64,000 nt of DNA from an uncultured Planctomycetaceae bacterium (GTDB taxonomy: Bacteria; Planctomycetota; Phycisphaerae; SM23-33), in NCBI GenBank assembly GCA_964605095.1, contig CAZSBS010000001.1, forward strand, positions 4,790 through 68,789, in the 5' to 3' direction. The position numbers and the translations under genes were made by a program. Within the stretch, counting starts at the first letter, position 1, and every line of letters begins with the position of its first letter. The notes beneath the pieces were generated by a model. That model saw only the letters and a list, made by a program, of their open reading frames with translations. It had not been told where the DNA came from and did not search any database. Of this stretch, positions 22,830 to 42,205 are shown one piece after another.

Positions 22830-22842
22830 AAACGGGCAAGGT

Positions 22843-24021: not shown

Positions 24022-24038
24022 CCGGTGACGAAAGCACT

Positions 24039-24884: not shown

Positions 24885-24886
24885 CC

Positions 24887-25857: not shown

Positions 25858-27447
25858 TTGTTGGCGAAGTTTCCGTCGTTGGCGTCGTTGAAAAACTCTC
25901 ATCGAGCGAGCCTTATGGACTGGTCGGACCTGGTAAGCACGATCTTCATGACGATTTACACCTTCAGCCTCGTGATGGTGTCGGCTTACGGTCTGCACAG
26001 GTACGTGATCGTCTATCTTTATTACAAGAACCGTCGCAAGGCCCCTCAGGCGCCGGGCCGGTTCGAAGACCTGCCGCCAGTGACGGTCCAGCTTCCGATG
26101 TACAATGAGCAGCACGTGGCGCGGCGGATCATCGAAGGCGCCTGCCGCATCGACTACCCCAAAGACAAGCTCCAGATACAGGTGCTTGACGACAGTATCG
26201 ACGAGACCTGTCAGTACGCCCAGGCCGCGGTGAGCGAGGCTCGGGCCAAGGGGTTCGACATCGAGTACATCCACCGCGGCGACCGCACCGGCTACAAGGC
26301 CGGGGCGCTGGAGAACGGCCTCAAGACCGCCAAGGGCGAGTTCGTCACGATCTTCGACGCCGACTTCGTGCCCGCGACGGACATCCTCCAGCGGTCGATC
26401 CACTACTTCACCGATCCCAAGGTCTGCGTCGTCCAGACGCGGTGGGATCACATCAACCGCAACGACAACATGCTGACCCGCACCCAGGCCATCCTTCTGG
26501 ACGGGCACTTCGCCATCGAGCACGTGGCACGCAATCGCAGCAACCGGTTCATGAGCTTCAACGGCACGGCTGGAACGTGGCGGAGAACGGCAATCGCCGA
26601 TGCCGGCGGCTGGCAGCACGACACGCTGACGGAGGACTTGGATCTTTCCTACCGCGCGCAGATGCGTGGCTGGAAGTTCGTCTTTCTGCCGGAGTTGACG
26701 GCCCCGGCTGAGCTGCCGCCGGAGATGACGGCCTTCAAGGCCCAGCAGTTCCGCTGGACCAAGGGCGGTGCGCAGACCACCATCAAATTGCTGCCCAAGG
26801 TTCTGCTCAGCAAACTGCCGCTGAAGGTCAAGATCGAGGCGTTTTTCCACCTGACCGGCTTCACGATGCACATATACATGTTTACGCTTGTGGTGCTGAT
26901 GTACCCGGCGATGGTCCTCCAAACCGTTCCGCTGGAGAGCGGCTCGATGTGGCGTGGCGTGTTCGACCTGGGTGTGTTCACCTTGGCAACGCTGTCGGCC
27001 AGCGTGTTCTACGTCGCCAGCCAGATCGAGTTGTTCGGCAACTGGCGGCAGGTTGTCAAATACTTGCCCGTGCTGATGGCGGTAGGGGTGGGCCTTAGCG
27101 TCTCAAACGCCAAGGCGGTCCTGGAGGCGGTCTTTGGCCGGAAAAGCGAGTTCATCCGCACGCCCAAGTACGGCGGGTGCTCCACGGGCCTGCACCTGTC
27201 CGCGCCGCTGTCCAGCCGCGGCCGAAAGAAAAGAAGCCTGCTCCCGTACGTCGAACTGCTGTTCGGCGTCTACATGGCCGGCTGCACGATCCACAGCCTG
27301 ATGCACATAAAGGCGGCGCTGACGGCGCCGTTCCTGGTGATCTTCACGTTCGGCTTCTTCTACGTGGCGGTAACGAGCTTCATTTCCCAGCGGGTTGTTG
27401 CCCCCGCGGCGTCGGCTGAGCCGGCAGCGGCGCCGGCACGCGACTGA
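25858..27447 (+). CDS. family-2 glycosyltransferase, cellulose-synthase-like processive type (start may be 25918)
   Basis: DDS, DAD and QQFRWTKG (QxxRW) motifs; N- and C-terminal TM segments. Confidence 0.85.
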   Translation: MLAKFPSLASLKNSHRASLMDWSDLVSTIFMTIYTFSLVMVSAYGLHRYVIVYLYYKNRRKAPQAPGRFEDLPPVTVQLPMYNEQHVARRIIEGACRIDYPKDKLQIQVLDDSIDETCQYAQAAVSEARAKGFDIEYIHRGDRTGYKAGALENGLKTAKGEFVTIFDADFVPATDILQRSIHYFTDPKVCVVQTRWDHINRNDNMLTRTQAILLDGHFAIEHVARNRSNRFMSFNGTAGTWRRTAIADAGGWQHDTLTEDLDLSYRAQMRGWKFVFLPELTAPAELPPEMTAFKAQQFRWTKGGAQTTIKLLPKVLLSKLPLKVKIEAFFHLTGFTMHIYMFTLVVLMYPAMVLQTVPLESGSMWRGVFDLGVFTLATLSASVFYVASQIELFGNWRQVVKYLPVLMAVGVGLSVSNAKAVLEAVFGRKSEFIRTPKYGGCSTGLHLSAPLSSRGRKKRSLLPYVELLFGVYMAGCTIHSLMHIKAALTAPFLVIFTFGFFYVAVTSFISQRVVAPAASAEPAAAPARD

Positions 27448-27502
27448 CCTTTCCGGACGTCATGACGTCGGGCTTTCGCCCCGACGCCTCTTCTAATGGC
27501 AA

Positions 27503-27584
27503 TGCGAGAGGCGGGACTCGAACCCGCACCCCTTTCGGGACCAGGACCTAAACCTGGCGCGTCTGCCAATTCCGCCACCCTCGC
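27503..27584 (-). tRNA. tRNA-Leu (anticodon TAG), type II with long variable arm
   Basis: rc: GCGAGGGTGGCGGAATTGGCAGACGCGCCAGGTTTAGGTCCTGGTCCCGAAAGGGGTGCGGGTTCGAGTCCCGCCTCTCGCA; TPsiC-loop TTCGAGT; anticodon loop TTTAGGT. Confidence 0.85.
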
Positions 27585-27661
27585 GCGACCGCTGCCGCTC
27601 ACGGCGGAACATTGTCGCTTATAGAACTTATAGAAAAAGCCGGCCCGCCTTGCCAGCGTAT

Positions 27662-27706
27662 TCCGCCTTTTCCAGGTTCCGCCTTTTCCAGGTTCCGCCT
27701 TGTCTT
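27662..27706. repeat. tandem direct repeat of 16-mer ccgccttttccaggtt (2.7 copies)
   Basis: ttccgccttttccaggttccgccttttccaggttccgccttgtc in 690-bp noncoding region. Confidence 0.7.
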
Positions 27707-28151
27707 TTCCGTCGTTTCCCGAGTTCCGAGGGGCCTCCAGGGCTTCATTGTCCCCTGAAACTTGCAAAAACCCGACAATAAGAACGAGAATTACCATTGT
27801 CTTACACGGGGCGCCACGTTATGATTAGGTTAAGAGGCTGGATGTTTGGCTGCTCAGGCTTGATGGCAGGCCGGTTGCGTGAGCACATCGTCGGTGGCCC
27901 TGCGGCGCCGTACGAAAATATAAGTGAATGTTCGAATCTGGTTCTAGCTCTCCGGGCGAGCCGTTTCCAGGCTTGCCCAAGCGGGTCCACATCGGGCGGC
28001 CGCAAGGCGCCTTGGCCCGTCATGCCGATGGAGTACGTCTGGGCGATTTGGCCCGGCCGTACGTTTGCAAAGTGCCGCGTGCTCGGGTAATGCCTCCGGC
28101 GGGAGCACAGTTGCTTTTCCGTCGCGGCGCGAAGGTCGGGCATTGGCTCTC

Positions 28152-28276
28152 TTTTGCCGATTGCAACGGGCGCGACAGGCAGGTGGAAATGCGGTTCTCC
28201 GACAGGCCAGGCCTTTCGTGTCGGTAGGGACGCCCCGTTGCCGACGCCGAGGCCGCAGCGATGAGGAGATGCAATC
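28152..28276 (+). promoter_or_regulatory. conserved leader upstream of vWA paralog 1 (copy 1 of duplicated ~130-nt leader)
   Basis: ~80% identity over ~130 nt with 29527..29657 incl. shared RBS context gcgatgaggagatgcaaNcATGACC. Confidence 0.5.
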
Positions 28277-29491
28277 ATGACCATTGATTTCCGATGCGAA
28301 AACTGCGGGAAGCTGTTGAGTGTCGACGATCAGACCGGCAGCGCGGCGCGATGTCCGCATTGCCGCAAGAAAGTCACGGTCCCGGCCGCCCTGGCCGCAT
28401 TGCCCCGTCCGCACGTGCCGCCCACCGCCAGGTGCGCCACTGCTGGCTTGCCCGCCGTCGCGCAGGCGTCTGGCCAGGCTGATGGCCGGCCGGGGGAGCA
28501 AGAGCCCGTCGAGGGCGAGGCCGTCGCCGGCGCCATGGCCACGGCCATGCCATGGGTAATCAGCGCCTTCATGCACCTGGGCGTGTTCCTGGTCATGATC
28601 TTCTTCGTCATGGTGACGGTGGTCACCAAGATTCCGATTACTATCGACATACCTGAGGGGGTGAATGTCCATGAGAATCCTGGGGGCGTGATGAACCCCA
28701 AGACCGAGACGGTCTCCAAGATCGAAAGTGATCGACGGAGAGTCGTCAAGCGGGACGACCCCAAGCGGGAGGAACAGGTCGAGAGGGGCAAGACCGGCAA
28801 GAGGGTTGATCTTCTTGCTCCCTCGTCGGGTGGTGCCCGGGGCGGGGCGGCCGAATTGGGCCTGGACAACAGCGACGCGACGGGGGGGCCAGAGAGCACG
28901 TTCATCGGCGGTGGCGGCAGCGGTTTCCACATCGTGTTTGTGGTTGACCGTTCTGGCTCGATGGCTCCGACTTTCGAGCGAGTCAGGTTCGAGATGCTCA
29001 AGACCATCGCCCACTTTAAGAAGGAACAGGACTTTACGATCATCCTCTTCTCCGACAACCAGTACATCGAAGGGCCGCAGAAGCGCCTGGTCTTGGCGAC
29101 TGATGAGATCAAGGACGCGGCGACCGATTTTCTCAAGGACATAACCGCCAGCAACACGACCACGGTTTTACCAGCCCTGAAACGCGCGTTCGAGGTCCTC
29201 AAGTATGCCGACAAGGAGAAACCCGGCCGGCTCGTTTACCTGCTGAGCGACGGCGACTTTGCGGGCATGTCCGGCGGCTCGACATACACCGGCGCCGATG
29301 GCAGGGTCCTTAACGGCAACGAGGCCGTGGTCCAGTGGCTGCGGGACAACAACCCCAAGGATGAGGCGAAGGGCAGGATGCACGTTCACACGTTCCTCTA
29401 CCTCAGCAAAGACGAAGAGGCCATGAAGGTAATGAGAACCATCGCCCATGAGAACGGCGGGTGGTTCAAGCCAATTAGCGCCGATGAGTGA
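28277..29491 (+). CDS. zinc-ribbon / single-TM / periplasmic vWA-domain protein (paralog 1)
   Basis: FRCENCGKLL...CPHCRKKV C4 ribbon; TM WVISAFMHLGVFLVMIFFVMVTVV; vWA MIDAS VFVVDRSGSM...TT...LLSDGDF. Confidence 0.85.
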   Translation: MTIDFRCENCGKLLSVDDQTGSAARCPHCRKKVTVPAALAALPRPHVPPTARCATAGLPAVAQASGQADGRPGEQEPVEGEAVAGAMATAMPWVISAFMHLGVFLVMIFFVMVTVVTKIPITIDIPEGVNVHENPGGVMNPKTETVSKIESDRRRVVKRDDPKREEQVERGKTGKRVDLLAPSSGGARGGAAELGLDNSDATGGPESTFIGGGGSGFHIVFVVDRSGSMAPTFERVRFEMLKTIAHFKKEQDFTIILFSDNQYIEGPQKRLVLATDEIKDAATDFLKDITASNTTTVLPALKRAFEVLKYADKEKPGRLVYLLSDGDFAGMSGGSTYTGADGRVLNGNEAVVQWLRDNNPKDEAKGRMHVHTFLYLSKDEEAMKVMRTIAHENGGWFKPISADE

Positions 29492-29505
29492 TTCCGAGAA
29501 AACGC

Positions 29506-29661
29506 ATGTGTCAGACAAATGACTTTTTTGCCGATTGCCACCAGCGCGACGGGCTGGTAAAAATACGGTTCTCTGACAGGCAAGGGCTTTTGGCTTTTGT
29601 GTCGGCCGGGATGCCCCGTAGCCGACGGCGCCAGCGCAGCGATGAGGAGATGCAAGCATGA
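29506..29661 (+). CDS. 51-codon upstream ORF in leader of paralog 2; stop overlaps main ATG (ATGA)
   Basis: MCQTNDFFADCHQRDGLVKIRFSDRQGLLAFVSAGMPRSRRRQRSDEEMQA; homologous in-frame to 5' end of gene 30890 (MRQTTVIFAGICLAGG). Confidence 0.4.
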   Translation: MCQTNDFFADCHQRDGLVKIRFSDRQGLLAFVSAGMPRSRRRQRSDEEMQA

Positions 29662-30875
29662 CCGTTGATTTCCGATGCGAGAACTGCGGGAAGATGTTGA
29701 GTGTCGACGATCAGCCCGGCAACGCGGTTCGTTGTCCACATTGCCGCAAGAAAGTCACGGTGCCCGCGGTCCTGGCCGCGTTGCCCCGTCCGCACGTGCC
29801 CCCGAACGCCAGGCATGCCGGCTCTCATTCCGGCGGGCAGTCGCAAGGCCAGGCCGATGGCGAGCAGGACGAGCAGGGCGAGGAAGAGCCCGAAGAGGAG
29901 GGCCAGGCTGTAATGGGCGCCATGGCAACGATCATGCCCTGGGTCATCAGCGTCTTCCTGCACTTGGGCGTGTTCCTGGTCATGCTCTTCTTCGTCATGG
30001 TCGTGGTGAACACCAAGATTCCGCCGGAGATCATCATTCCGGACGCCGCGCTGAGCCTGGACAATCCCGGCGGCGTGATGGACCCCAAGACCGCGACGGT
30101 TTCCAAGAGCGAGAATGATCGGCGGACGGTCGTCAAGCGGTACACCAAGCGGGAGGACCAGGTCGACAAGGGCAAGACCGAGCAGACGGTTCAGCTTCTC
30201 GCGGCCTCATCGGACGGCGCTCACGGCGGCGCGGCCGACCTGGGCCTGACCAACAGTGACGCCGCCGGCGGACCCAAGAGCCGGTTCTTCGGCTCCGGCG
30301 GCAACGCATACCACATCGCGTACGTGGTGGACCGTTCGGGCTCGATGGCCCCGACGTTCGAGCAAGTCCGTATCGAGATGCTCAAGTCCATCAGCGGCCT
30401 TAAGGCGGTGCAGGACTTCACGATCATCCTTTTCTCCGACAACCAGTTCATCGAGGGTCCGCAGAAGCGGCTGGTCTCGGCGGAGCTTGAGAACAAGCTC
30501 GCGGCGAACAATTTCCTCAAGGACATAACCGCCCAGAGTTCGACCACGGTTTTGCCGGCCCTGAAGCGGGCGTTCCAGGTCCTCAAGTATGCCGACGCCA
30601 GCAAGCCAGGCCGGCTGGTTTACCTGCTGAGCGACGGCGACTTCGCGGGCATGTCCGGCGGCTCGACGTACACCAGCGCCGACGGCAGGGCCCTTAACGG
30701 CAACGAGGCCGTGATTCAGTGGCTGCGGGACAACAACCCCAAGGATGAGAAGAAGGGGCTGGTTCACGTCAACACGTTCCTCTACCTCAACAAGGACGAG
30801 GACGCCATGAAGGTAATGAAAACCATCGCCAAAGAGAACGCCGGCCGGTTCAAGCTCATCAGCTCCGACGAGTGA
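29658..30875 (+). CDS. zinc-ribbon / single-TM / periplasmic vWA-domain protein (paralog 2)
   Basis: 405 aa, ~70% identical to paralog 1; same C4 ribbon, TM and MIDAS motifs. Confidence 0.85.
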   Translation: MTVDFRCENCGKMLSVDDQPGNAVRCPHCRKKVTVPAVLAALPRPHVPPNARHAGSHSGGQSQGQADGEQDEQGEEEPEEEGQAVMGAMATIMPWVISVFLHLGVFLVMLFFVMVVVNTKIPPEIIIPDAALSLDNPGGVMDPKTATVSKSENDRRTVVKRYTKREDQVDKGKTEQTVQLLAASSDGAHGGAADLGLTNSDAAGGPKSRFFGSGGNAYHIAYVVDRSGSMAPTFEQVRIEMLKSISGLKAVQDFTIILFSDNQFIEGPQKRLVSAELENKLAANNFLKDITAQSSTTVLPALKRAFQVLKYADASKPGRLVYLLSDGDFAGMSGGSTYTSADGRALNGNEAVIQWLRDNNPKDEKKGLVHVNTFLYLNKDEDAMKVMKTIAKENAGRFKLISSDE

Positions 30876-30889
30876 TTCCGGGAGATAGC

Positions 30890-31963
30890 ATGCGTCAGAC
30901 AACTGTCATTTTCGCGGGGATATGCCTGGCCGGCGGGCTGGCCTTTGCGGACTCGCTGACCATCAACAACCTCCCGTATGACAATGTGCGCGTCACCGAC
31001 GTTTCCAAAGGCACGATAACCTACGAGCTTAGCGGGCGCAGGTACGACAAGCCTCTGGCCGAAGTCAGCCGCGTGGTGCTGAGCGGCCAGAGGGACTTCA
31101 ACAAGGCCGAGGACGCCTTCAAGGCCGGCAAGTTTGCCGATGCCGTCGCGGCCTACACCGAGGCTGAAAAGTCCACCGATAAGCTCGACTGGCTGCGTCG
31201 GCTGATCCGCTATCGCCGCATTCCCGCGGCCGACGCGGCGAAAATGCCGGGCCAGGCCGTCGCGGACTGGTTGAGCGTCGTCGACGACGCCGGTGCCAGC
31301 CGGGCCGTGATAGCCATGGCCCCGGAAGCGGTCGCCCCCAAGGGCTCGCCCGATAACGCCTTGGCGATGGAGCTGCTGAAAAAACGCCTCGGCAAGGGCG
31401 ATCCGATATTCCGCGCCAAGGTCAAGGACCTGCTGCTTAATCTCTATGCTGCCGAGGACCTCAAAGACAAGGCGATGCTGCTCCAGGGCGAAGGGCCGGC
31501 CACCGCCCCCGGCGGCGAGCAGGCGCCCCCGCCGCTGGTGGTCTCGGTCGAGCAGGTCTCCAGGCAGTTGCAGGAGGCCGCCAGCCAGATCAAGCTCGGC
31601 CAGTACGACGCCGCGGCTGAGAGCATAAAGGCGAAGCTTAACCGGTTTACCAGCAGTGAGCTTCCAGGCGCGCTGGTGCTTCGGGGCAAGGCGCTTCAGT
31701 TGTCATACGAGAAGGGCGGCTCCAAGGATGTCAAGAAGCTCAAGGAGGCTGGGCTGTGCTTCATGCGCGTTGCGGCATGTTGCGACCCTACCACCCCGCA
31801 GGTGCCGGAGGCCCTTTACCTCGCGGCGATGGTCGAGCGTGTACTGGGCAACCATGTCGCGGCCGCCAATGCGATGCGGATGTTGATCGCCCGGTACGCC
31901 GCGAGCGAGTGGGCCCAGAGGGCCCAGACCGCGTTGGGCGGTGCCGCCGGGCCGGAGAAGTAA
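30890..31963 (+). CDS. secreted alpha-helical protein of unknown function
   Basis: RBS ggaga 30881; signal peptide MRQTTVIFAGICLAGGLAFA; Ala/Lys-rich helical composition. Confidence 0.65.
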   Translation: MRQTTVIFAGICLAGGLAFADSLTINNLPYDNVRVTDVSKGTITYELSGRRYDKPLAEVSRVVLSGQRDFNKAEDAFKAGKFADAVAAYTEAEKSTDKLDWLRRLIRYRRIPAADAAKMPGQAVADWLSVVDDAGASRAVIAMAPEAVAPKGSPDNALAMELLKKRLGKGDPIFRAKVKDLLLNLYAAEDLKDKAMLLQGEGPATAPGGEQAPPPLVVSVEQVSRQLQEAASQIKLGQYDAAAESIKAKLNRFTSSELPGALVLRGKALQLSYEKGGSKDVKKLKEAGLCFMRVAACCDPTTPQVPEALYLAAMVERVLGNHVAAANAMRMLIARYAASEWAQRAQTALGGAAGPEK

Positions 31964-32085
31964 GAGTTGCCGCGCGGTTTTTGGGACTATCGAGTACAAT
32001 CCCCGGCCGGGCCGGCCAGGGTTGAAAAGGACACTTAAGGCAGGCAGCGAGACAGGAACCCTGTAGAACAGAGGAGATCGAGAGC

Positions 32086-32763
32086 ATGTGGGATTTTCAA
32101 TGGGCGACATTGGCGCAGATACAGCCCTCCGGCAATCTGGACTACTTCGAGATGCTGGTCTGGCCGGGCGGCGGGAGTATCGGCATTCTGCTGTGGCTGT
32201 TGAGCGTCGTGCTGGTTGCGCTGTGCATCCAGTTCTTCATCACGATCCGCCAGGGCAACATCATGCCCGACCTGGTCAAGCAGCAGATACAGACTCTTTT
32301 CGACAATAAGCAGTACCGCGAAGCGATCGAGGTGACGGCCACCGAGCCGAGCATGCTCAGCTACGTGGTTCATGCGGCGCTATCAGAGGCGGCGCACGGA
32401 TACGCCTCGATGGAGCGCGCCATGGAAGAGTCGGCCGAGGAAAAAAGCTCGGGCATGCTCCGCAAGATCGAGTGGCTGAATCTGCTGGGCAACATCAGCC
32501 CGATGCTTGGCCTGTTGGGAACCGTCTGGGGCATGATCCTGGCCTTCATGGCGATCGTCGCGGCCAAGGGCATCCCCTCGCCGGACGCGCTGGCTAAATC
32601 GATCGGCATCGCGCTGGTGACGACCCTGCTGGGCCTTATGGTGGCGATTCCGGCGCTAGGGGTCTTTGCCATTCTGCGCAACCGCATCGATGCGCTGAGC
32701 AACCAGGTGATCATGCAGTCGCAGGAGTTGATTTCGACGTTTCGCCCGGCCCCCAAGGGCTGA
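32086..32763 (+). CDS. MotA/TolQ/ExbB-family proton-channel stator subunit
   Basis: 225 aa; three TM helices; C-terminal MotA_ExbB region ...ISPMLGLLGTVWGMILAFMAI... Confidence 0.85.
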   Translation: MWDFQWATLAQIQPSGNLDYFEMLVWPGGGSIGILLWLLSVVLVALCIQFFITIRQGNIMPDLVKQQIQTLFDNKQYREAIEVTATEPSMLSYVVHAALSEAAHGYASMERAMEESAEEKSSGMLRKIEWLNLLGNISPMLGLLGTVWGMILAFMAIVAAKGIPSPDALAKSIGIALVTTLLGLMVAIPALGVFAILRNRIDALSNQVIMQSQELISTFRPAPKG

Positions 32764-32814
32764 TCGGCGCGGGCGTCATTAGACATTGCAGTCGCCAGGA
32801 CGGGTAAGGAGTAC

Positions 32815-33375
32815 ATGACAATGGCAACGAAAAAGTTTCGTTCATGCAGTGACGTCGGGTTCAACATGACCCCCATGATCGACTGCACGTTCCAGTTGAT
32901 CATCTTCTTCATCCTTGTCGGCCAGGTTGCCAACGAAACCTATGCCAAGAACGTGAAGCTCGTCAGGCCGGTCGACAGCCAGGCCATACCGTCGTCGGTG
33001 GCCAAGTTCACCAACAAGGTGACGGTGAACGTTGTCTCGGCCGCGGCCGGGGAGTTGAACCCGGACCCTGCCACGGCTTCGGAGTTGAAGTTCTACCAGA
33101 TTCTCACCGTGAAGTACCATGTCGGCGAGATTGACCGGATGATCGACGTAATCAAGAAACTCAGGAGCGACTACGAGAAGCAATTCGGCACGACCGTTTC
33201 GCCAACGGCAGGCGCAGGCGGCAAGGAAGGCGATGACAACCGGATGTTCTTCCTTGAGATCCGTGCCGACGAGCGCGTCAACTGGCAGGATGTGGCGCCC
33301 GTCATCCGTGCCGGCGTCGAGGCCGGCATCAACAAGATGAACATCACCGCCCTGACGGCACGGATCGGAGACTAA
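32815..33375 (+). CDS. ExbD/TolR-family protein (paralog 1)
   Basis: N-terminal MTPMIDCTFQLIIFFILV single TM typical of ExbD/TolR. Confidence 0.75.
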   Translation: MTMATKKFRSCSDVGFNMTPMIDCTFQLIIFFILVGQVANETYAKNVKLVRPVDSQAIPSSVAKFTNKVTVNVVSAAAGELNPDPATASELKFYQILTVKYHVGEIDRMIDVIKKLRSDYEKQFGTTVSPTAGAGGKEGDDNRMFFLEIRADERVNWQDVAPVIRAGVEAGINKMNITALTARIGD

Positions 33376-33376
33376 C

Positions 33377-33883
33377 ATGGCTATTACAGCAAACAAACCG
33401 GTGGAAGGCGACGAGACAGTCCACCATGTATCGCCCAGCAAGGAAAAGGACAAGCCGAAGGCGAGCATGCAGCCGCCGATGACGCCGATGATCGACGTCA
33501 CGTTCCAGTTGCTGCTGTTCTTCATCCTCACGTTCGAGTTCCGCGAGTCGGAAGGCATGATCCCGGGCACGCTGCCGAACAAGGGCTCCATTGCCCAGTC
33601 GGTCACCGACACTCCGCCGCCGGACCCGATCCAGATCCGCGTGATCCCCTCGGCAAACAAGGAAACCGCCAGCTACGAGATGACCGGAATCGGCGTGGCG
33701 ATTGCGACCCCGCACGATCTCGGTGAGCTTCTCAAGCAGCGGCGGGAGCAGATAGGCAGCACGGAAGTGCCCATAGTGATATTTCCCAGCCAGGACGTGC
33801 CCTGGGGGTTCGTCGTCGAGGCGTTCAACCAGGCCAAGAGGGCGAATTTCCAGAAGATCGGTTTTGCCCAGCAGATAATGTGA
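33377..33883 (+). CDS. ExbD/TolR-family protein (paralog 2)
   Basis: ...QPPMTPMIDVTFQLLLFFILTFEF... ; C-term ...VPWGFVVEAFNQAKRANFQKIGFAQ. Confidence 0.78.
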   Translation: MAITANKPVEGDETVHHVSPSKEKDKPKASMQPPMTPMIDVTFQLLLFFILTFEFRESEGMIPGTLPNKGSIAQSVTDTPPPDPIQIRVIPSANKETASYEMTGIGVAIATPHDLGELLKQRREQIGSTEVPIVIFPSQDVPWGFVVEAFNQAKRANFQKIGFAQQIM

Positions 33884-33985
33884 CTTATCCGCGCCGGGCG
33901 GGTGATGCCGCGGCAGGCTGGGCATGAGAAGAATGAGCGACATCGCCCGTTTGGATGGCGAAAGGCTCTGCCAAGGGAGACTATC

Positions 33986-34492
33986 ATGGCGATTTCTACA
34001 AGCAGGACGGTAGAAGGCGACGAGAAAGTCCACCATAAGGCGCCCGCCGGAAAGCCAAAGGGCTCAGCCAACCTCCAGCCGCCCATGACCCCGATGATCG
34101 ACGTGACGTTCCAACTGCTGCTGTTCTTCCTGCTGACCTGCGAGTTCCGAGAGTCCGAAGGGGCGATACCCGGCACGCTGCCCCGGATCGACAATGGGCT
34201 GGTTGTTAGGCCTCCAGTTCCGCCCCAGTCGGACCCGATCGAGATCCGGCTGCGTCCCTCCGCCGACCGGCAGTCGGCAAGTTACCAACTGACCGGAGTG
34301 GCCACGGTTATCACGAGCGTCCGTGAGTTGGGCGACCTGCTCCGGGTTCGCCAGGAGCAGCTTGGCAGCGGGGAGGTGCCGGTGGTGATATACCCCAACC
34401 CGGATGTGCCCTGGGGGTTTGTCGTTGAGGCGTTCAACCAGGCCAAGAGGGCGAGGTTCAGCAAGATCGGCTTTGCCCAGGGAATACTGTAA
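33986..34492 (+). CDS. ExbD/TolR-family protein (paralog 3, recent duplicate of paralog 2)
   Basis: ATG 33986; ...QPPMTPMIDVTFQLLLFFLLTCEF...VPWGFVVEAFNQAKRARFSKIGFAQ near-identical blocks to paralog 2. Confidence 0.78.
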   Translation: MAISTSRTVEGDEKVHHKAPAGKPKGSANLQPPMTPMIDVTFQLLLFFLLTCEFRESEGAIPGTLPRIDNGLVVRPPVPPQSDPIEIRLRPSADRQSASYQLTGVATVITSVRELGDLLRVRQEQLGSGEVPVVIYPNPDVPWGFVVEAFNQAKRARFSKIGFAQGIL

Positions 34493-34545
34493 GCCAGCCG
34501 GTCCGCGGCGGGCAAGTGATAAGCTAGAGCGAGTGTGAGATAGGT

Positions 34546-37500
34546 ATGACGAAGATTCGCATCGGCCTGCCCAAGCTGGCTGCAATCGGCATAATCGCGG
34601 TGGCGAGCCTGTCGTGCGCGGCTGTGGCGCAAGAAAAGAAGATACCCAGCGCCTACGAGCAACTGCCGATAGACAGGCTCATCAAGCAGCTTTCGCAGTT
34701 GGGGATGACCGAACTGTTGCAGGCCATCGAGGACGATATTCCGGCCGAGGACAAGTCCTTCCGGGCTCTGACGCTCCGCGGCCGCGTCCGCATGGGTCAG
34801 GCCAACGCCATGGCCAAGCCGGAAGACCAGAACGCGAAGATGGACGAGGCCATCGTGATTCTGCGTGCCGCGGTTAAGAAGGGCCAAGAGGAGGACAGCG
34901 CCGACGCCGGCGACCAGCTCGAGTTGTATCGGGTCATGTTGGAGTTGGCGACGGCGGAGGGGCGGTACCGCATTGAAAGCCCGCACATTCTCCGCCTGCG
35001 AATGCTGCTGGGCAACGACGCCGACCGCAAGATTATACTCCGATTCACCAAGGAGGCCGTGGAACTGTCCTACATCCTTGAGGACAAGATCTCCCGCGCG
35101 CTTACGGGGTTGCGGTCGAACATGGGCGATTACATGCGATACGGACCCGCAATGGAGGACCTCCAGCGGGAGATGCGCTACAACTCCGGATGGATCCGCC
35201 TGCACCGCGCCATGGCCCTGCCAGCCGGGAGCGAGCGGGCTGAACTCTGCCGCAACGTCATCGCCGACATGAAGGAGTTCTCCGAAGACCCCGACAGCGG
35301 CGTTATGGGCTGGGCCATGTTTGCCACGGGAGCCGCCCAACGCATGCTGGGCAATTGGGCCGATGCCGATGATGTGCTCAAGAAGGTCGCCGAAAACCCC
35401 AACGAGGACAAGGAACTGCGCCAGCGGGCGTGGTTCGAACGGGTTCGAAACTGCATCGACGAGGGTGCCGACGCGAAGATCGACCGCGCCCTGGCTGATT
35501 TCGAGGCCGGCTCCCTGGCCATCTGGGGCGAGGAAAAACGGGTCATCGTCGATCTGCGTCTGGTGCTGCTGCGGAGCTATCGAGTCGAGTTGGCGGCAGT
35601 CAAGGAAACCAACGCCGCCAAGAGGAAGGCCCTGTTCGCCCAGGCCCAGGCCGAACTGCTGAAGTTCGTCGAGAAGTACGCCGACCGCCCGGACCTGATC
35701 AGGCCCTTCCTTGAAATGGTCAATACCAAGTTCGCGGGCGACGACGACCTGACCAACGCTAGCGCCATCGTCTGCATGGCAAGGGCCTATGCCAAGCTCG
35801 CCAGCGAGAAGCCCCAGGACAAGGCCGAGGGGGAAAAGCTCCTGCTGAGGGTGCTGAATCACAAGGACCTCGACAACCCCAAGATCGCCCAGGCTATCGA
35901 GCCCGGTGTGCTCTACGAGCTTGCCTTCATAATGAACCAGCGCAAGCTCAACGTCGAGGCGTCCAAGTACTTCGTCAGGCTTGCCCGCAAGTATCCCAAG
36001 CACGACCTGGCCGAGAAGTCAGCCATGTTCGCGGTCCGAAGCCTCTACGGCGTTTTAGCCGAACGCCAGGAAAAGGGCGAGGAGATTTCCCCGAGCCTTC
36101 GCCTGGAATACATCCGCGCCCTGGAAACGTTGCTGGGAAACTGGTCAACCGCGAAAGACGCCGTCAAGTGGAACTTCGACCTTGCCGCCCAGTGCATCAA
36201 GCTGGCCGGGCAGTCCGAGGAACCAGCCGTCAAGTTCTACTGGCAGGTCCGGGCAATCGCCGCCAACGAGAAGATCCCCCTGGCGATGCTGGAGTACATG
36301 GAGGCTCAGCATGCCGCCCTGGAAATGCGATACCAGATCGTGCTGAACCGCGACGAGTTGGCCGAGGTGCTCGGCGGCGGCCCCGAGCGGCTCAAGCAGT
36401 CTCTGGGCCGGCTGGCCGAGACGCTTGTGGAGCTGGACAACGTCGTCCTGCCGCCGGAGGCGTCCGCGACGTCGGCCCCGGCCGAGGACGCCGAGGTGAA
36501 GGTCTCCGCGGAAGCCCGCGACAAGAAGATCACCGAGACGGGCAAGCTGCTCAACGACAGCCTCAAGACGTACTCGGACCCGACAGCCCTTGTCGAGCAA
36601 CTCAAGAAGTACTCCGTCGACGCCCTGGCCGAGAGCAAGAAGGCGGCTGAGAAGGCCGCGTCGGTTGGGGGCGAGGAGAAGGCGCAGTTCCAGGCCAACG
36701 CCGATGGGCTCAAGGAGTGGTCCGCCCAGGCCGAATACCAGGCCGCTGTCATCAAGTACGAGCAGTTTCCCAAACTGCTCTCCAAGGACAATGCCGAGGG
36801 GCGACAGAAGATCGAACAGGAGGCCCTGGGGGATCTGCGGGCGCTGATAGCCAGGCTGACGGCCGAGGGAAAGTCCAATGGCGCCTCGGCCCGCGAGCAT
36901 TCGCCGGTCCTGCCGATGGCCCACGAGTTCGAGATACGCAAGCTCATCGAACTCGGGCGGACCGACGAGGCGATCGCCAAGATCCAGGATTTCAAGAAGT
37001 CCTTCCCCGATCAGGCCAAGCAACTTATTCAGTTGCTGGTCCAGCAGATTCAGGAGCAGATCATCCGGCTGGAGAAGCGCCTCAAGAGTGCCGTGACCCA
37101 GGCCCAGGCCGATGAGGTCCGCCAGGCGCTGGATCGCTACCAGACGGCTTACGTGAACTTCGCCAAGGACCTGTATGACCCCGTGGCAGGCAAGCCTCTC
37201 AAACTGCCTGAGTTGGAAGCCATGCGGCGCGATCTGCGGGCACTGGAGCAGAAGCGCGATTTTGACGGCCTGTTGGCAAAGGCCCAGGGCCTGCCCGCTC
37301 TGGCGGCCGAGAACGACGTGAAGCTCGAGGACCTCAAGGGCAAGGAAGTGCTGGATAGCTGGATTGCCGGCGCAAAGGCGCCGGGCGCCGACCGCAACAA
37401 CATCCTGCCCAAGCTGGCCGCGGCCACGATGAACATGGTGCTGAACATCCGCGACGTTGTCATGGAACGCTACGGACTCGTCCAGATGTACGCCGACTCG

Positions 37501-38226
37501 CTTCTGAACAGGGGCAAGGCCGAACATTTGGCCAAGCGGGACGACTCGTCCAAGGCTGCCTACAAGGAGGCCCTGGACCTGTTCAAGAAGTGCTTCGATC
37601 TGGACGACGCCTGCCGCAAGGGCGAGGCTGCATGGCTGGCCAAGAAGTACAGCCCGTTCATCGAGGACGTCAAGGCCAACGCCAAGAGCATGGGCGCCGT
37701 CAGCAGGATGGTCGAGGCCTTCCGGAAGGAGTTGAAGGACGCCGAGCAGATCCAGGCCATGTCCGCGGACATGTCGTCGATGGAGTATGCCGATAAGTAT
37801 GTCCGCGGCGCAGCCAATCAGCAGCAGGAGCAGGAGCGGCTGCCGCGTGCGGTGGAGATGCTGGTTCGCGGGTGGAACAACCTGGTGCGGACATTGCAGA
37901 ACCAGACCATTATTGACCACCTGAACATTATCGGCATGGCCCGGGCGCAGCGTGGGCTGGGCAACTATGGCGAGGCAATGGCGCTGTATCGCCGTTACAC
38001 CGAGGGTCTCCCCAGAGACAAGTTCCCCTCGAAATACTGGCATGCCGAACTGGAGCGGTGCCAGTGCAACCTGGACGGCTACCTGAGCAACCCCGAGGCC
38101 ATGAAGAACTTGGTGATCCAGATAAACTCCCTGAGGATCAAGGACAAGGAAATGGGAGGCATGGCTGCCGAGTTTGAGCAGATAAAGAAGACGGCAGGCG
38201 GCAAGGCCGGCCAGGGCGGCAAGTGA
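34546..38226 (+). CDS. 1226-aa secreted all-alpha (TPR/coiled-coil-like) protein of unknown function
   Basis: signal peptide MTKIRIGLPKLAAIGIIAVASLSCAAVA; uninterrupted ORF with protein-like K/E/A/L composition; antisense ORFs are GC-artifacts. Confidence 0.8.
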   Translation: MTKIRIGLPKLAAIGIIAVASLSCAAVAQEKKIPSAYEQLPIDRLIKQLSQLGMTELLQAIEDDIPAEDKSFRALTLRGRVRMGQANAMAKPEDQNAKMDEAIVILRAAVKKGQEEDSADAGDQLELYRVMLELATAEGRYRIESPHILRLRMLLGNDADRKIILRFTKEAVELSYILEDKISRALTGLRSNMGDYMRYGPAMEDLQREMRYNSGWIRLHRAMALPAGSERAELCRNVIADMKEFSEDPDSGVMGWAMFATGAAQRMLGNWADADDVLKKVAENPNEDKELRQRAWFERVRNCIDEGADAKIDRALADFEAGSLAIWGEEKRVIVDLRLVLLRSYRVELAAVKETNAAKRKALFAQAQAELLKFVEKYADRPDLIRPFLEMVNTKFAGDDDLTNASAIVCMARAYAKLASEKPQDKAEGEKLLLRVLNHKDLDNPKIAQAIEPGVLYELAFIMNQRKLNVEASKYFVRLARKYPKHDLAEKSAMFAVRSLYGVLAERQEKGEEISPSLRLEYIRALETLLGNWSTAKDAVKWNFDLAAQCIKLAGQSEEPAVKFYWQVRAIAANEKIPLAMLEYMEAQHAALEMRYQIVLNRDELAEVLGGGPERLKQSLGRLAETLVELDNVVLPPEASATSAPAEDAEVKVSAEARDKKITETGKLLNDSLKTYSDPTALVEQLKKYSVDALAESKKAAEKAASVGGEEKAQFQANADGLKEWSAQAEYQAAVIKYEQFPKLLSKDNAEGRQKIEQEALGDLRALIARLTAEGKSNGASAREHSPVLPMAHEFEIRKLIELGRTDEAIAKIQDFKKSFPDQAKQLIQLLVQQIQEQIIRLEKRLKSAVTQAQADEVRQALDRYQTAYVNFAKDLYDPVAGKPLKLPELEAMRRDLRALEQKRDFDGLLAKAQGLPALAAENDVKLEDLKGKEVLDSWIAGAKAPGADRNNILPKLAAATMNMVLNIRDVVMERYGLVQMYADSLLNRGKAEHLAKRDDSSKAAYKEALDLFKKCFDLDDACRKGEAAWLAKKYSPFIEDVKANAKSMGAVSRMVEAFRKELKDAEQIQAMSADMSSMEYADKYVRGAANQQQEQERLPRAVEMLVRGWNNLVRTLQNQTIIDHLNIIGMARAQRGLGNYGEAMALYRRYTEGLPRDKFPSKYWHAELERCQCNLDGYLSNPEAMKNLVIQINSLRIKDKEMGGMAAEFEQIKKTAGGKAGQGGK

Positions 38227-38314
38227 TCCGGCGCCGGAGAACATTGCCGGACAGATGTTTGAAAACCAGCGGTTGACGCGGGATTGCCTGATACTATACT
38301 GGCGCGGACAAAAC

Positions 38315-38388
38315 GGCGGCGTAGCCAAGCGGACCAAGGCGACGGATTGCAAATCCGTTATTCGTGGGTTCGAATCCCACCGCCGCCT
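38315..38388 (+). tRNA. tRNA-Cys (anticodon GCA)
   Basis: GGCGGCGTAGCCAAGCGGACCAAGGCGACGGATTGCAAATCCGTTATTCGTGGGTTCGAATCCCACCGCCGCCT; 7-bp acceptor stem, TTCGAAT T-loop. Confidence 0.88.
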
Positions 38389-38424
38389 GTTGATAGCCCT
38401 TAAGGCTTTTATCCGAGGTGAATT

Positions 38425-39681
38425 ATGCTGAAGCACGCGTATCTTTCCATGCTGTGCTGCCTCTTGCTGGCTTGCGGTTATTGCTTTGCCGAGAAAAAGC
38501 AGATCAAGCTCAAGAGCGGCGAGACCATCATTGGCGAGGTTGTCGAGCAGACTCCCGAGGGGATAAAAGTCAAGCGCCCCCTGGCGACGGTGTTCTATCC
38601 GAAGGACCAGATCGTCTCGATCGAGCCGGTATACGACGTTAAGGAAGATTACGCGAATCGTCTGTCCAAGCTCAAGAAGGACGACTTCGAGGGCCAGTTG
38701 GCACTTGGGCAGTGGGCCTTGGAGAACAAGCTCTATCCCGAGGCCGTCAAGCACCTTGAAGAGGCCGTGAAGCTCAAGAACGAGGAGCGCGCCCGCTTGC
38801 TGCTTCGCCAGGCCCAGGCCAGGCTCGAGGATGCCGAGAAAGCCAAGGAGACTCCCTCCAAGGGCGGCGACAAGTCGGGGTCCTCGGCAGGCGGCGATGG
38901 TGCCACGTTCAGCATGAAGCAAATGGTCAGCGACGATGACATCCAGCGGATTCGCATGGCGGAACTCTCGGATGACGACCGGGTGAAAGTCGAGTTTCGC
39001 AAGGACGTGGTCGACAGGTTCTTGGAGCAGGTTCGTGGGCGGGGCAAATTCGCGGAGGAAACCGACGTCGCCAAGTTCCGCCGCCTGCCGGCCTTGCGCC
39101 AGGCCAAGATCATCATCGAGGAAGTCGGCCCCGGCGACCCACTCAGGAACGACATCATCATCAAGTCGGACCCGGCTTCAATGCGCGAGTTCCACTCGGG
39201 CGTCTGGCGGTGGGTTTCGACCAGTTGTGCCGCGGCGACCTGTCACGGCTCGGCCAAGGGTCAGGGCGGGCTGAAGCTCTGGAACGTTACCGCCCGAAGC
39301 GACAACGTGGACTACACCAACTTCCTGATCCTCGACGCGTTTCACACCAAGGGCGGCCTTCAGGTGATCCGGCGCGATGAGCCGGAAGAGTCGCTGCTGT
39401 TGCAGTTCGGCCTGCCGGACAACCAGGCCAAGCACCGTCATCCGAAGGAGAAACGCCCGCCGTTTTCCAGCAAGACCTCGCCGCTCTACAAGCAGACGCT
39501 GGATTGGATTCTGTCTTTGAAGCGCCCGCTGCACCCGGAGTACGGCCTCAAGAGCATTCCGCCGCACGTGATGAAGCGAATCGACCCGTTGTTCGGGCTG
39601 CCCACTTCACCGGTGCCCAAGGATAAGGGCGCCAAGGACAAGTCTGGCAAGTCTGATAAGTCAAGCAAGCCGCCTTTCTGA
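38425..39681 (+). CDS. secreted protein with C-terminal PSCyt1-like (planctomycete cytochrome-c-like) region carrying a CX4CH motif
   Basis: signal peptide MLKHAYLSMLCCLLLACGYCFA; ...WRWVSTSCAAATCHGSAKGQGGLKLWN... Confidence 0.55.
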   Translation: MLKHAYLSMLCCLLLACGYCFAEKKQIKLKSGETIIGEVVEQTPEGIKVKRPLATVFYPKDQIVSIEPVYDVKEDYANRLSKLKKDDFEGQLALGQWALENKLYPEAVKHLEEAVKLKNEERARLLLRQAQARLEDAEKAKETPSKGGDKSGSSAGGDGATFSMKQMVSDDDIQRIRMAELSDDDRVKVEFRKDVVDRFLEQVRGRGKFAEETDVAKFRRLPALRQAKIIIEEVGPGDPLRNDIIIKSDPASMREFHSGVWRWVSTSCAAATCHGSAKGQGGLKLWNVTARSDNVDYTNFLILDAFHTKGGLQVIRRDEPEESLLLQFGLPDNQAKHRHPKEKRPPFSSKTSPLYKQTLDWILSLKRPLHPEYGLKSIPPHVMKRIDPLFGLPTSPVPKDKGAKDKSGKSDKSSKPPF

Positions 39682-39712
39682 ACCGTGCGGCTTTCCTGGC
39701 CGCGGCGAGGCT

Positions 39713-40378
39713 TTGGCGATGGAGCAGATTCAATACGCCTTCGTGGCTGTGCTGGTCGGCGTGCTGGTCGCCGCCAGCGTTTCTTTCGCGGTGATGGGCC
39801 TGGGCAAGGTTCTTCGGCGTCGCCGGTTGGCTCGCGACGCCCACCAGCGCGGGCTGAGGTTCTTTCCTGACGATCCTTACGACGTGCCGAGGCGTTATGC
39901 GGACTTCGCGGTGATATCCTCCGGGCACAGCCCGTGCGCTAACAACGTAACTGCCGGCGGGATAGTCGGCAGGACGGTGCGAGCATTCGATTTTCGCTGC
40001 GAGTTGGGCCACGGAACTCGCAGGCTCACGCGGCGCTATAGCGTGGCCATTGCCGAGACTCGCCTGAGTCAGCCGAGCCTGCTGATGTGGCACACGGGCG
40101 ACGGCGAGTTGGCCCCGCTGGCGGCAAGGGATGTCCAGGGCCGGGTCGGACAGTGGAGTTTCCGCGGGTCGCGGGAGTTGGCTGAGACTGTCGAGGCCGC
40201 GTGCCGACATCTCGGCCCGGCCCAGCCGAGCGTCGAGATTCGCGGCTCGGTCGTCCTGATAGCCGTGTCGGTGCGGCGGGCCATTCGCCAGTACGCCCTT
40301 GCCTTGGACGAAGTTTCGGGCATTATAGAGGCCCTGGACGGCCCCCGTGGCCCCAGGCCACCCGCGGTGGGGGCCTGA
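39713..40378 (+). CDS. hypothetical membrane-anchored protein
   Basis: 221 aa; N-terminal TM FVAVLVGVLVAASVSFAVMGL; coding-like GC3. Confidence 0.5.
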   Translation: MAMEQIQYAFVAVLVGVLVAASVSFAVMGLGKVLRRRRLARDAHQRGLRFFPDDPYDVPRRYADFAVISSGHSPCANNVTAGGIVGRTVRAFDFRCELGHGTRRLTRRYSVAIAETRLSQPSLLMWHTGDGELAPLAARDVQGRVGQWSFRGSRELAETVEAACRHLGPAQPSVEIRGSVVLIAVSVRRAIRQYALALDEVSGIIEALDGPRGPRPPAVGA

Positions 40379-40549
40379 CCGTGGGCCGGGCCGCCGGGCA
40401 GTCGGCGAGAATCGAGAATATCGCGTCGAAGTTGTTGGACAAGATGTATGCAGGCCGTTGCAAACGGCCCTCCGGTGTGTTAGAAAGTTGCTTGCGAGAT
40501 TCCACTGGCCGTGCCAATGCCGGCTGCGGACATATTGGGAGAGGACATC

Positions 40550-42205
40550 GTGCAAAAGGACAAACGTTTCGGTTGCGTCGCGCTGAGCTTGGTCTGCCTG
40601 TCCGCGGCGCTACTCGCGGGATGCCGCAGCACCGCCAGCCCACTGGCAGAAGCCACCGCCCGCGCTGGTCGGCTCTATGATCGGGCGTGCAGCCTGCTTA
40701 ACGACACGCCCTACATGGTCCGCCAGCAGTATGCGCCCTTCGCCAAGCCGATCGAGCTGCCCTCGGATCCCAATGCGGCGGTAAAGCTGGTCCAGCTTAC
40801 CGCGCTGGGGCAGATCAACCCGCGGGCCGACAAGACGCTCAACGAGGCCATCGACGGCCTGACCAAGGCCCTGGCTGGGGCCGAAGGCCGGCCGGAGATC
40901 GAAAAAGTCAACGCGCAGGCTGTCTTGGCCCGGCTGTACGCTCTGCGCGGCTACCGCATGTCGATCGAGGCCGGCCTGAGGTGCCGACAGGCATGGGACC
41001 TCGCCGGCCTGGTGGAAAGCGACGCAGTCCGCATCAGCGGGTTGGGCAAGCGGATCGCCAGCTACGACCAGATCCTTAGCGTCACGGACGAGTCGCTCGG
41101 CAAGATGGCCGAGGCCGCCAAGACGCAGCAGTCGGCCGCCGAGGATAAGATCGCCGAGGCCAACACGAAAATCGCGGCCCTGGACAAGGAAGAGGCGGAC
41201 CTGAAGGCTGCAAACGTCACAATCTCCGAGGAGTCGCGAAAGCTTCTCACTGAAAGCCAGATTGCTGACCCGATCAAGGGCGTCGCGATTTATGACGAGG
41301 CCAAGACTAAGGAAGACAAGGCCAGCGTGAACTCCGCCCGCATAGCGCAGATCGAAGAGGCCATGCAGACCATCAAGTCACAGGTGGCGGAGTTCGAGGT
41401 GGTTCGGGTGGCCGCGGTTAATCAGGCGAAAGTGGCTGGCGATATGGCCGATACCCGCCAGAAGAGCCGCTCCGAAACCGATCAGGCGCGGAAGGCCCAG
41501 ATTGACAAGTTGACCGAGGCCCAGAAGCAGGCGGAGACGCTGGCGGGGCAGGTCGTCGAGGTATCCAAGGCCGCCGCCGCCGCCGAGGCCAAGGCCCTGG
41601 GCGACTACGACAAGGCTGTCAAGACCTACGAGACCTATGGGCAAATCACGGAATCGTACGCCAAGGATCCAGGCGCCGATGCCTTCCTCAAGCCCGACCC
41701 CGCCATTATTGCGATGCTTGGCGACGTGCAAATGGCGCGGGCGGACCTCAGGGTCCAGGCCCTCCTGCTTCAGCATCGCCTGCAAACCGTCGTCGCGGAG
41801 ACATCCGGCATATGGTCCAGCCTGCCGACGCAGAACACCACGCCCGCGGTTATCGGACAGATGAAGGATTACGTCCCCAATCCGGGCAAGCTTAAGGAAG
41901 ATGCCCAGCGCGACTTCAGTTGGGCCGCGAGGGCCTACGAGAAGGCCAAAGAGGCTGTTATTGACCCGAAGCTCAAGTGGGCCTACGTGCTCCAGCAGTC
42001 GGCCGCGAACGTCAGCCTCTACCGCCTGTCCGGCGACGCCGACGCCAAACAGAAGGCGACAGCGGAACTGGACTCCCTCGGCACAGAGGAAGCCTCGCCC
42101 CTGATCGCCCCAACGGCTGACGGTTTCCGCAAGCTGCTGGCCGCCCCGGCCCTGCTTGGCTCCGAGGCGCCTTTCAGCCCGGCGCCCACCCAGCCCGCGC
42201 CGTGA
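40550..42205 (+). CDS. coiled-coil lipoprotein of unknown function (GTG start after RBS gggagagga)
   Basis: (M)QKDKRFGCVALSLVCLSAALLAGC lipobox; long Ala/Lys/Glu-rich coiled-coil segments. Confidence 0.6.
   Translation: MQKDKRFGCVALSLVCLSAALLAGCRSTASPLAEATARAGRLYDRACSLLNDTPYMVRQQYAPFAKPIELPSDPNAAVKLVQLTALGQINPRADKTLNEAIDGLTKALAGAEGRPEIEKVNAQAVLARLYALRGYRMSIEAGLRCRQAWDLAGLVESDAVRISGLGKRIASYDQILSVTDESLGKMAEAAKTQQSAAEDKIAEANTKIAALDKEEADLKAANVTISEESRKLLTESQIADPIKGVAIYDEAKTKEDKASVNSARIAQIEEAMQTIKSQVAEFEVVRVAAVNQAKVAGDMADTRQKSRSETDQARKAQIDKLTEAQKQAETLAGQVVEVSKAAAAAEAKALGDYDKAVKTYETYGQITESYAKDPGADAFLKPDPAIIAMLGDVQMARADLRVQALLLQHRLQTVVAETSGIWSSLPTQNTTPAVIGQMKDYVPNPGKLKEDAQRDFSWAARAYEKAKEAVIDPKLKWAYVLQQSAANVSLYRLSGDADAKQKATAELDSLGTEEASPLIAPTADGFRKLLAAPALLGSEAPFSPAPTQPAP

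Follow-up and report, generated by a model that had tools for sequence, protein, structure and literature searches.

Among described systems, the closest to the locus treated here is a gene cluster of Planctomycetes-Verrucomicrobia-Chlamydiae (PVC) bacteria reported in 2025, in which an inner-membrane protein with a domain of the von Willebrand factor A (vWA) type, termed a 'force transducer', accompanies a tetratricopeptide repeat (TPR) protein, a TolQ-like channel and two unlike TolR-like proteins (PMC12204202, section 8). In the structure predictions of that work, the vWA helix was placed on the side of the motor. We found no literature on the function of planctomycete ExbD or TolQ beyond PMC12204202. 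For the AglR-AglQ-AglS gliding motor of Myxococcus xanthus, an AglQ:AglS heterodimer in the pentamer is predicted (AglR5QS), and TonB-like transducers act together with this motor, as does a vWA adhesin (PMC11761067). The tonB-exbB-exbD1-exbD2 operons of Sphingobium sp. SYK-6 and Xanthomonas campestris serve TonB-dependent transporters (PMC8599685). Here, we describe an ExbB/TolQ-type gene and three ExbD/TolR-type genes following it, referred to as D1, D2 and D3, in a stretch of 64,000 nucleotides (the window) from an uncultured Planctomycetaceae bacterium of the Phycisphaerae (assembly GCA_964605095.1, contig CAZSBS010000001.1, positions 4,790 to 68,789 of the forward strand).

ExbB and the three ExbD/TolR genes

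The first-pass annotation of positions 32815-34492 had proposed one ExbB-type gene followed by three ExbD/TolR paralogues, and this composition was borne out by the Pfam scores. The ExbB product matched PF01618 (E=1.7e-27; 96.1 bits against a cut-off of 22.9), its gene sitting just outside that interval, and the products of the three consecutive plus-strand genes all exceeded the PF02472 cut-off of 25.4 bits (Table 1). In a search of PDB sequences, the closest solved relative of ExbB was E. coli TolQ (8odt, E=6.3e-13); the alignment of the two spans residues 96-205 and takes in the conserved segments GTVWG and TT. The NCBIfam equivalog cut-offs were missed: ExbB scored 71.8 against 221 for TolQ (TIGR02796) and 51.7 against 206 for ExbB (TIGR02797), and D1, D2 and D3 scored 16.5, 26.4 and 21.0, respectively, against 127.3 for TolR (TIGR02801).

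The proton-binding aspartate in E. coli is D25 of ExbD and D23 of TolR. This transmembrane (TM) aspartate was present in all three window proteins, in the segment MTPMID[C/V]TF (MTPMIDCTF in D1), and lined up with TPFIDV of ExbD and PLLDV of TolR when the family profile was aligned with the solved chains. D1, D2 and D3 were full length; neither a copy lacking the aspartate nor a truncated pseudogene was thus found in the window. D40 was invariant in the D2-family alignment (54 sequences), and the aspartate was kept in 53/53 D1-type and at least 66 of the 70 D2/D3-type open reading frames (ORFs) of relatives. Single-sequence phmmer searches of PDB sequences with D1 and D2 gave no ExbD or TolR match, and the family profile and a fold search were required; the D2-family profile could be aligned with chains of ExbD and TolR from end to end. 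In an AlphaFold2 model of D2 built with 54 family members, the block-mean predicted local distance difference test score of periplasmic residues 81-160 was 88-95, and Foldseek matched this domain to TolR (5by4, E=3.3e-05) and ExbD (8vgc, TMt 0.80, root mean square deviation 2.2 Å). The structure model covers D2, to which D3 is 63% identical.

D1 had been described as divergent, which is true of the protein as a whole (ca. 25% identity with D2); however, as described below, it is the conserved partner of D2 rather than an outlier. The two share 14 of 17 residues in the TM helix, and the remainder is unrelated by BLASTP. At the DNA level, the 50 nt encoding this helix in D1 (32866-32915) were 84% identical to those of D2 (33479-33528) and 76% identical to those of D3 (34085-34134). 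Either a very strong constraint on the segment or local gene conversion of old date would explain this likeness.

The D1 gene starts 57 nt 3' of the ExbB gene; its ORF opens at 32815, and the gene was called from 32821. In the window, the D2 start lies 1 nt after the D1 stop. For D3, the longest ORF begins at a GTG at 33902 (196 aa), and this start was dropped in favour of the ATG at 33986 (168 aa, the length of D2). The latter is most likely correct since the register of the DNA repeat described below agrees with the gene calls on six metagenome contigs, which carry an identical D2 and a D3 of 168 aa. Every gene across 28277-44108 lies on the plus strand. Five antisense ORFs over the ExbD genes had no Pfam match and were taken as high-GC artefacts. 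Promoter and terminator predictions in 27400-42500 did not rise above shuffled expectation, with no terminator between the ExbB and ExbD genes, and an Rfam scan of 27300-34600 found nothing beyond one tRNA.

Conservation of D1 and D2 and the origin of D3

One genome per species was scanned by ExbB alignment, and 80 loci were annotated by script, among which 27 Phycisphaerae loci were complete between ExbB and the gene for a large TPR protein. The order ExbB-D1-D2 was found in 27/27 of these complete loci and also in many recovered Planctomycetia loci, including those of Gimesia and Thalassoglobus. In the Planctomycetia, the first ExbD matched D1 only and the second matched D2/D3 only. The distance from the D1 stop to the D2 start was 1-16 nt in the window and its relatives, suggesting coupled expression. 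D1 and D2 are thus an ancient paralogue pair conserved together across the phylum.

The first-pass annotation regarded D2 and D3 as a recent tandem duplication. The tandem arrangement and the closeness of the pair were confirmed: D2 and D3 are clear paralogues and the closest ones at the locus (61% amino acid identity by BLASTP, E=7e-69; 63% by global alignment; 71% nucleotide identity), the shared motif blocks and N-terminal tails quoted for them are present in the sequences, and the footprint of the duplication was delimited by a repeat search (Table 1). Each repeat unit begins 10 nt 5' of the ATG and covers the final part of D1 together with the ribosome binding site (RBS). Upstream of D3, the sequence reads GGAGACTATcATG; it goes back to the last D1 codons and the D2 start, GGAGACTAAcATG. 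The recent date did not hold. D2 and D3 differ by a nonsynonymous divergence (dN) of 0.27 and a synonymous divergence (dS) of 0.83, and the same three ExbD genes, with orthologues of both D2 and D3, occur in a relative (L007) whose ExbB is 85% identical to that of the window (dN/dS 0.12). The window and L007 proteins were 72% identical for D2 and 67% identical for D3, as compared to 63% (window) and 56% (L007) between D2 and D3 within one genome. Each copy resembles its L007 orthologue more than its paralogue, and D2 and D3 had therefore separated before the window and L007 lineages diverged, lineages that are themselves near synonymous saturation (dS 0.7-1.0).

In neighbour-joining trees, window and L007 sequences paired with 99% bootstrap for the D2 orthologues and 73% for the D3 orthologues, and the window D3 fell inside the D2 clade of the closest relatives (97%). 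Ongoing gene conversion between D2 and D3 since the window/L007 split was rejected on the two orthologue pairings; conversion older than that split is possible. The dN/dS ratios between the window and L007 were 0.26-0.35 for all three ExbD genes, with D3 at 0.35, indicating that these genes are maintained by selection. Metagenome homologues split into separate D2-like and D3-like groups, the D3 clade comprising ca. 16 distinct 90%-identity clusters. The window D3 keeps the aspartate, a D2-like tail motif (VEGDE.VHH) and its own RBS; the tail motif is lost in most other third copies. D3 is, therefore, a tandem copy of D2 that is older than the window-L007 split and has been kept under purifying selection.

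A third ExbD was intact in 6 of the 27 loci (the window, L007, L009, L010, L011 and L025), decayed in 2 and absent from 19. The decayed copies are a 72-aa stub in which the TM segment is preserved and which continues into the following gene (L008, 10598-10816) and a copy broken across three reading frames (L012, 10739-11250); they are either true pseudogenes or errors in metagenome-assembled genomes. The third copies of L010/L011 and of L009/L025 formed groups of their own (67% and 86% bootstrap, respectively) apart from the window D3. Third copies arose, or at least diverged, in at least three lineages, and L074 suggests a fourth. A single ancient origin of all third copies was considered but is disfavoured by the position of the window D3 in the D2 clade, apart from the third copies of L010/L011, in trees whose deep-node support is low. 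Between the same pairs of genomes, third copies were 47-48% identical and first D2-type copies 62-69%; third copies thus evolve faster. D2-type ExbD and vWA genes were duplicated repeatedly across relatives, in agreement with the earlier suggestion that the locus is prone to duplicating its modules. Presence of a third ExbD and of a second vWA gene showed no consistent association across the annotated loci.

A proposed motor and its alternatives

The system context had escaped the first-pass annotation, which did record duplication of the vWA gene. The cluster contains no TonB; it contains TonB-like vWA transducers and TPR proteins and is of the type described in PMC12204202. The two inner-membrane vWA proteins, vWA-a and vWA-b, are 73% identical and built alike, with an N-terminal CxxC...CxxC zinc ribbon on the cytoplasmic side, a TM helix followed by a charged linker, and a vWA domain at the C-terminus. 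The nearest relatives, L007, L008, L010 and L011, have a single vWA protein, to which vWA-b is orthologous (69-76% identity). The TM helix contains an S-x3-H motif, VISAFMHLG and VISVFLHLG in the window copies and VIS[AV]F[ML]HLG in nearly all relatives, Planctomycetia included; the motif conserved across relatives is P-W-V-I-S-x-F-x-H. The vWA duplicates of other lineages extend from highly diverged ones (27-35% identity) to a very recent one in L014 (88%).

Several further features of the vWA genes were observed. The zinc ribbon of the Phycisphaerae proteins, M-x-V-D-F-R-C-E-N-C-G-K...C-P-H-C (28277-28380 and 29658-29760 in the window), was absent in the Planctomycetia loci L037, L040 and L055. 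Possibly, it gives a periplasmic force transducer an input from the cytoplasm, and it recalls the zinc-ribbon domain of Myxococcus GltJ. A non-coding leader of ca. 130 nt was duplicated with each vWA gene (28149-28276 and 29523-29657), and the two leaders were 82-87% identical as compared to 78% for the coding body, suggesting a conserved 5' regulatory element; Rfam gave no match in these leaders. In two distant loci with a third ExbD (L009 and L025), some vWA copies have lost the TM-helix histidine (SLFATL, SISINA and SIFVVG), these loci being too few to connect the loss with the extra ExbD.

Based on these results, we consider it probable, with some reservation, that the locus encodes a planctomycete envelope machine of the PVC cluster type that is driven by the proton motive force and consists of a 5:2 motor with a D1:D2-type heterodimeric plug, D3 being an alternative D2-type subunit. 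Enclosed by five ExbB subunits, the two plug helices would be contributed by D1 and by a D2-type protein, in a heterodimer like that predicted for AglQ/AglS. Proton flow through the aspartates would turn or stroke the complex. The vWA proteins would dock on the outside of ExbB via their TonB-like Ser-x3-His helix and pull a periplasmic or outer-membrane partner bound at the metal ion-dependent adhesion site (MIDAS), while the TPR proteins and lipoproteins would complete the bridge. We infer the D1:D2-type plug from genes that are always together 1-16 nt apart, near-identical TM helices, unrelated periplasmic domains and tails, and the AglRQS precedent. D3 could take the D2 position and form an alternative D1:D3 motor, as suggested by the tail motif that it retains. 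The first-pass annotation had argued for heteromeric or alternative plug assemblies with emphasis on D2 and D3; this idea is plausible, and the argument for a heteromer is stronger for the ancient, strictly co-conserved D1 and D2.

Several points weigh against this proposal. D1:D2, D1:D3 and D2:D3 pairs as well as homodimers are all possible, the proposed assembly being deduced from co-conservation and the analogy with AglRQS. The vWA helix has in common with the SHLS segment of TonB/TolA the S and H only, the Leu and Ser positions being Met and Val or Phe in the window. In the window, vWA lies upstream of the motor genes, whereas it lies downstream in PMC12204202, and the match to the PVC cluster is one to the description given there, in which the reference vWA protein is that of Tichowtungia. 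The number of independent duplications is uncertain, as the neighbour-joining trees were built from proteins of ca. 165 residues and have poorly supported deep nodes (4-43). Finally, D3 could be largely redundant, in view of the decay of third copies in some relatives and of their faster evolution.

This last point can be extended to the explanation that D3 has no distinct role and is a redundant duplicate heading for loss, D1 and D2 alone being of importance. The 19 of 27 loci without a third copy, the truncated or frameshifted remnants in 2 and the accelerated evolution of third copies would fit such a fate, but the window D3 is intact, carries the aspartate, the D2-like tail motif and its own RBS, has a dN/dS of 0.35 against L007 and belongs to a sizeable clade in metagenomes; we, therefore, regard it as unlikely. 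Each ExbD might instead homodimerise, giving up to three alternative ExbB5:ExbD2 motors, each possibly with a different transducer. Solved ExbBD and TolQR motors in PDB entries hold homodimers, and the aspartate and very similar TM helices are found in all three proteins. Such an arrangement has a real but small probability in our view since the strict phylum-wide co-conservation and tight coupling of two proteins as different as D1 and D2 are more typical of obligate partners, and a heterodimer is the prediction for AglRQS, the one comparable motor with three genes. It is also conceivable, if rather doubtful, that the motor is combinatorial, with a fixed D1 and exchangeable D2 and D3, the choice of which would set, via the periplasmic domain and cytoplasmic tail, which vWA protein is driven. 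If true, duplication of plug and transducer would be how Phycisphaerae diversify the outputs of one proton motor.

The nature of the whole system may be viewed differently, too. A planctomycete counterpart of Tol-Pal, with vWA in place of TolA and a TPR protein in place of CpoB, would act in outer-membrane integrity or division. The best NCBIfam and PDB matches were TolQ and TolR, a weak CpoB/YbgF-like match (E=5.5e-07) was obtained for the 357-aa TPR protein, and the locus is core, syntenic and housekeeping-like, lying between the rpoA/L17 and sigma-70 genes. Against this, TolA, TolB and Pal were found neither in the cluster nor among the other window proteins scanned, and the equivalog scores were well below the cut-offs, as given above for TolQ (71.8) and TolR (26.4 at best) and including 30.2 against 90.1 for the TPR protein on tol_pal_ybgF. 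Since Pal is required by the definition of Tol-Pal (PMC12204202), this explanation appears rather improbable. A classical TonB-ExbB-ExbD energiser of outer-membrane nutrient uptake with redundant extra ExbD isoforms is quite improbable. Operons with one ExbB and two ExbD are known in Sphingobium and Xanthomonas (PMC8599685), and ExbB weakly matches the TIGR02797 exbB model; however, neither a TonB_C protein nor a TonB-dependent receptor was detected in the cluster or among the 31 distinct plus-strand window proteins scanned, all NCBIfam ExbB/ExbD equivalog scores were far below cut-off with ExbB closer to TolQ, and the conserved neighbours are TPR proteins and vWA proteins with a TonB-like helix. 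The reading of the locus as a Zorya-type module for defence against phages, with a MotA/MotB-like motor as its base, has virtually no chance of being correct. Zorya uses a 5:2 MotAB-like motor, a stoichiometry that the proposed motor would share, but 0/10 cluster proteins (ExbB, D1-D3, the vWA and the TPR proteins among them) matched a Zorya model in PADLOC, which returned faint unrelated matches only, and the locus is core and syntenic rather than a variable island. This possibility was effectively refuted by the PADLOC result.

To our knowledge, Planctomycetes lack several textbook envelope systems. The cluster of TolQ, two unlike TolR proteins and vWA transducers is a core syntenic feature of Phycisphaerae. 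Through repeated duplication and loss of D2-type and vWA genes, the number of plugs varies naturally between two and three in this cluster and that of transducers between one and two, a variation that could help to find out if a 5:2 motor is able to work with plug subunits that are heterodimeric or exchangeable.

Gene neighbourhood and comparison with known systems

In Phycisphaerae loci with sufficient flanks, the shared gene order began with ribosomal genes, rpoA and L17, followed by the genes for cyclophilin and a family-2 glycosyltransferase and by one or two vWA genes. Next came the 357-aa TPR protein, ExbB and the ExbD genes, and then a TPR-rich protein of 1000-1260 aa, three conserved proteins that had no family match and a sigma-70 gene. 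The 357-aa TPR protein was present in nearly all Phycisphaerae loci, and the position of the large TPR protein was kept in 26 of the 27. Judging from their N-termini and positions, the 564-aa and 418-aa proteins are candidate outer-membrane anchors of the system.

The glycosyltransferase (25858-27447) is membrane-embedded with a synthase-like architecture (Glyco_tranf_2_3, E=2.2e-29) and lay upstream of the vWA/ExbB cluster in all loci whose recovered sequence extended far enough, so that a link of the motor to a surface polysaccharide process is possible. A block between the cyclophilin and glycosyltransferase genes (20729-25648) encodes a PadR regulator, an NMT1-like ABC transporter and an outer-membrane porin of the AlgE type ('Alginate export'; 21288-22829, E=1.5e-64), and was absent at that position in L007-L009. 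A tRNA-Leu(TAG) gene (27503-27584, minus strand) is found in the long stretch that separates the glycosyltransferase gene from the first vWA gene, and a tRNA-Cys(GCA) gene (38315-38388, plus strand) lies inside the conserved cluster between the genes for the 1226-aa TPR protein and the 418-aa protein.

Table 1 Features of the vWA/ExbB cluster in the window, with the basis of each assignment.
Feature	Coordinates	Strand	Basis
vWA-a, extra paralogue of vWA-b; DxSxS MIDAS	28277..29491	+	VWA_2, 38.2 bits (cut-off 27)
vWA-b, putative TonB/TolA-like force transducer	29658..30875	+	VWA_2, 27.1 bits (cut-off 27)
Secreted TPR protein, 357 aa, between vWA and ExbB (ORF opens at 30872)	30890..31963	+	Sub-threshold TPR and CpoB-like matches
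ExbB/TolQ-type proton-channel subunit, presumed pentamer of the 5:2 motor	32086..32763	+	Pfam PF01618
ExbD1 (D1), ancient divergent ExbD/TolR paralogue; periplasmic domain with insertions	32821..33375	+	PF02472, 47.6 bits
ExbD2 (D2), second ancient ExbD/TolR paralogue; cytoplasmic tail motif VEGDETVHH	33377..33883	+	PF02472, 56.6 bits
ExbD3 (D3), lineage-specific tandem copy of D2; intact, under purifying selection	33986..34492	+	PF02472, 54.1 bits
Tandem duplication footprint: units 33367-33896 and 33976-34505, 609 nt apart, ca. 79 nt unique junction	33367..34505	+	Repeat search
Large secreted TPR-rich protein, 1226 aa, directly 3' of the ExbD genes	34546..38226	+	Several sub-threshold TPR matches
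Conserved 418-aa protein; signal- or lipoprotein-like N-terminus (L-L-A-C)	38425..39681	+	Synteny; weak family matches
Conserved protein of ca. 219 aa; N-terminal TM segment	39713..40378	+	Synteny; no Pfam match
Conserved 564-aa predicted lipoprotein; L-A-G-C lipobox	40511..42205	+	Synteny; no Pfam match

The systems introduced at the outset resemble this locus to different degrees. With E. coli TolQ-TolR-TolA and ExbB-ExbD-TonB (8odt, 6tyi, 5by4 and 8vgc), it shares the alignment of ExbB with TolQ, the periplasmic fold of D2 and the TM aspartate. It differs from them in its low sequence similarity, in having a vWA head instead of the C-terminal domain of TonB or TolA, and in a plug that is probably heteromeric rather than homodimeric. 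The tonB-exbB-exbD1-exbD2 operons likewise have one ExbB followed by tandem ExbD paralogues, all with the equivalent of Asp25, whereas the window has no TonB, vWA transducers in its place and three ExbD genes. AglRQS shares the combination of one TolQ-like channel with two different TolR-like proteins; the window encodes no Glt proteins, and its third TolR-like gene duplicates one of the partners. The likeness to AglRQS is one of analogy only.

The PVC cluster of PMC12204202 is nearest, sharing with the window its phylum-level distribution, the parts list, the succession of one TolQ/ExbB and two unlike TolR/ExbD, and a vWA protein with a Ser and a His in the TM helix, a linker that is charged or disordered, and a vWA domain at the C-terminal end. 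The order vWA-TPR-ExbB-D1-D2 was found in the 27 Phycisphaerae loci, and vWA-gap-ExbB-D1-D2 in the Planctomycetia. Unlike the PVC cluster, the window has three TolR/ExbD and two vWA genes, vWA proteins with the extra N-terminal cytoplasmic zinc ribbon of the Phycisphaerae, and four further conserved genes, namely those for the 1226-aa TPR protein and the 418-, 219- and 564-aa proteins. One ExbB followed by two ExbD is a known layout, as in tonB1-exbB1-exbD1-exbD2 of Sphingobium (PMC8599685), and the planctomycete cluster of vWA, TolQ and a TolR pair is already in the literature. The window contributes a case in which three plugs are combined with two transducers, both modules having been repeatedly duplicated and lost in Phycisphaerae; by itself, the third ExbD is a modest, lineage-specific elaboration of the known system.

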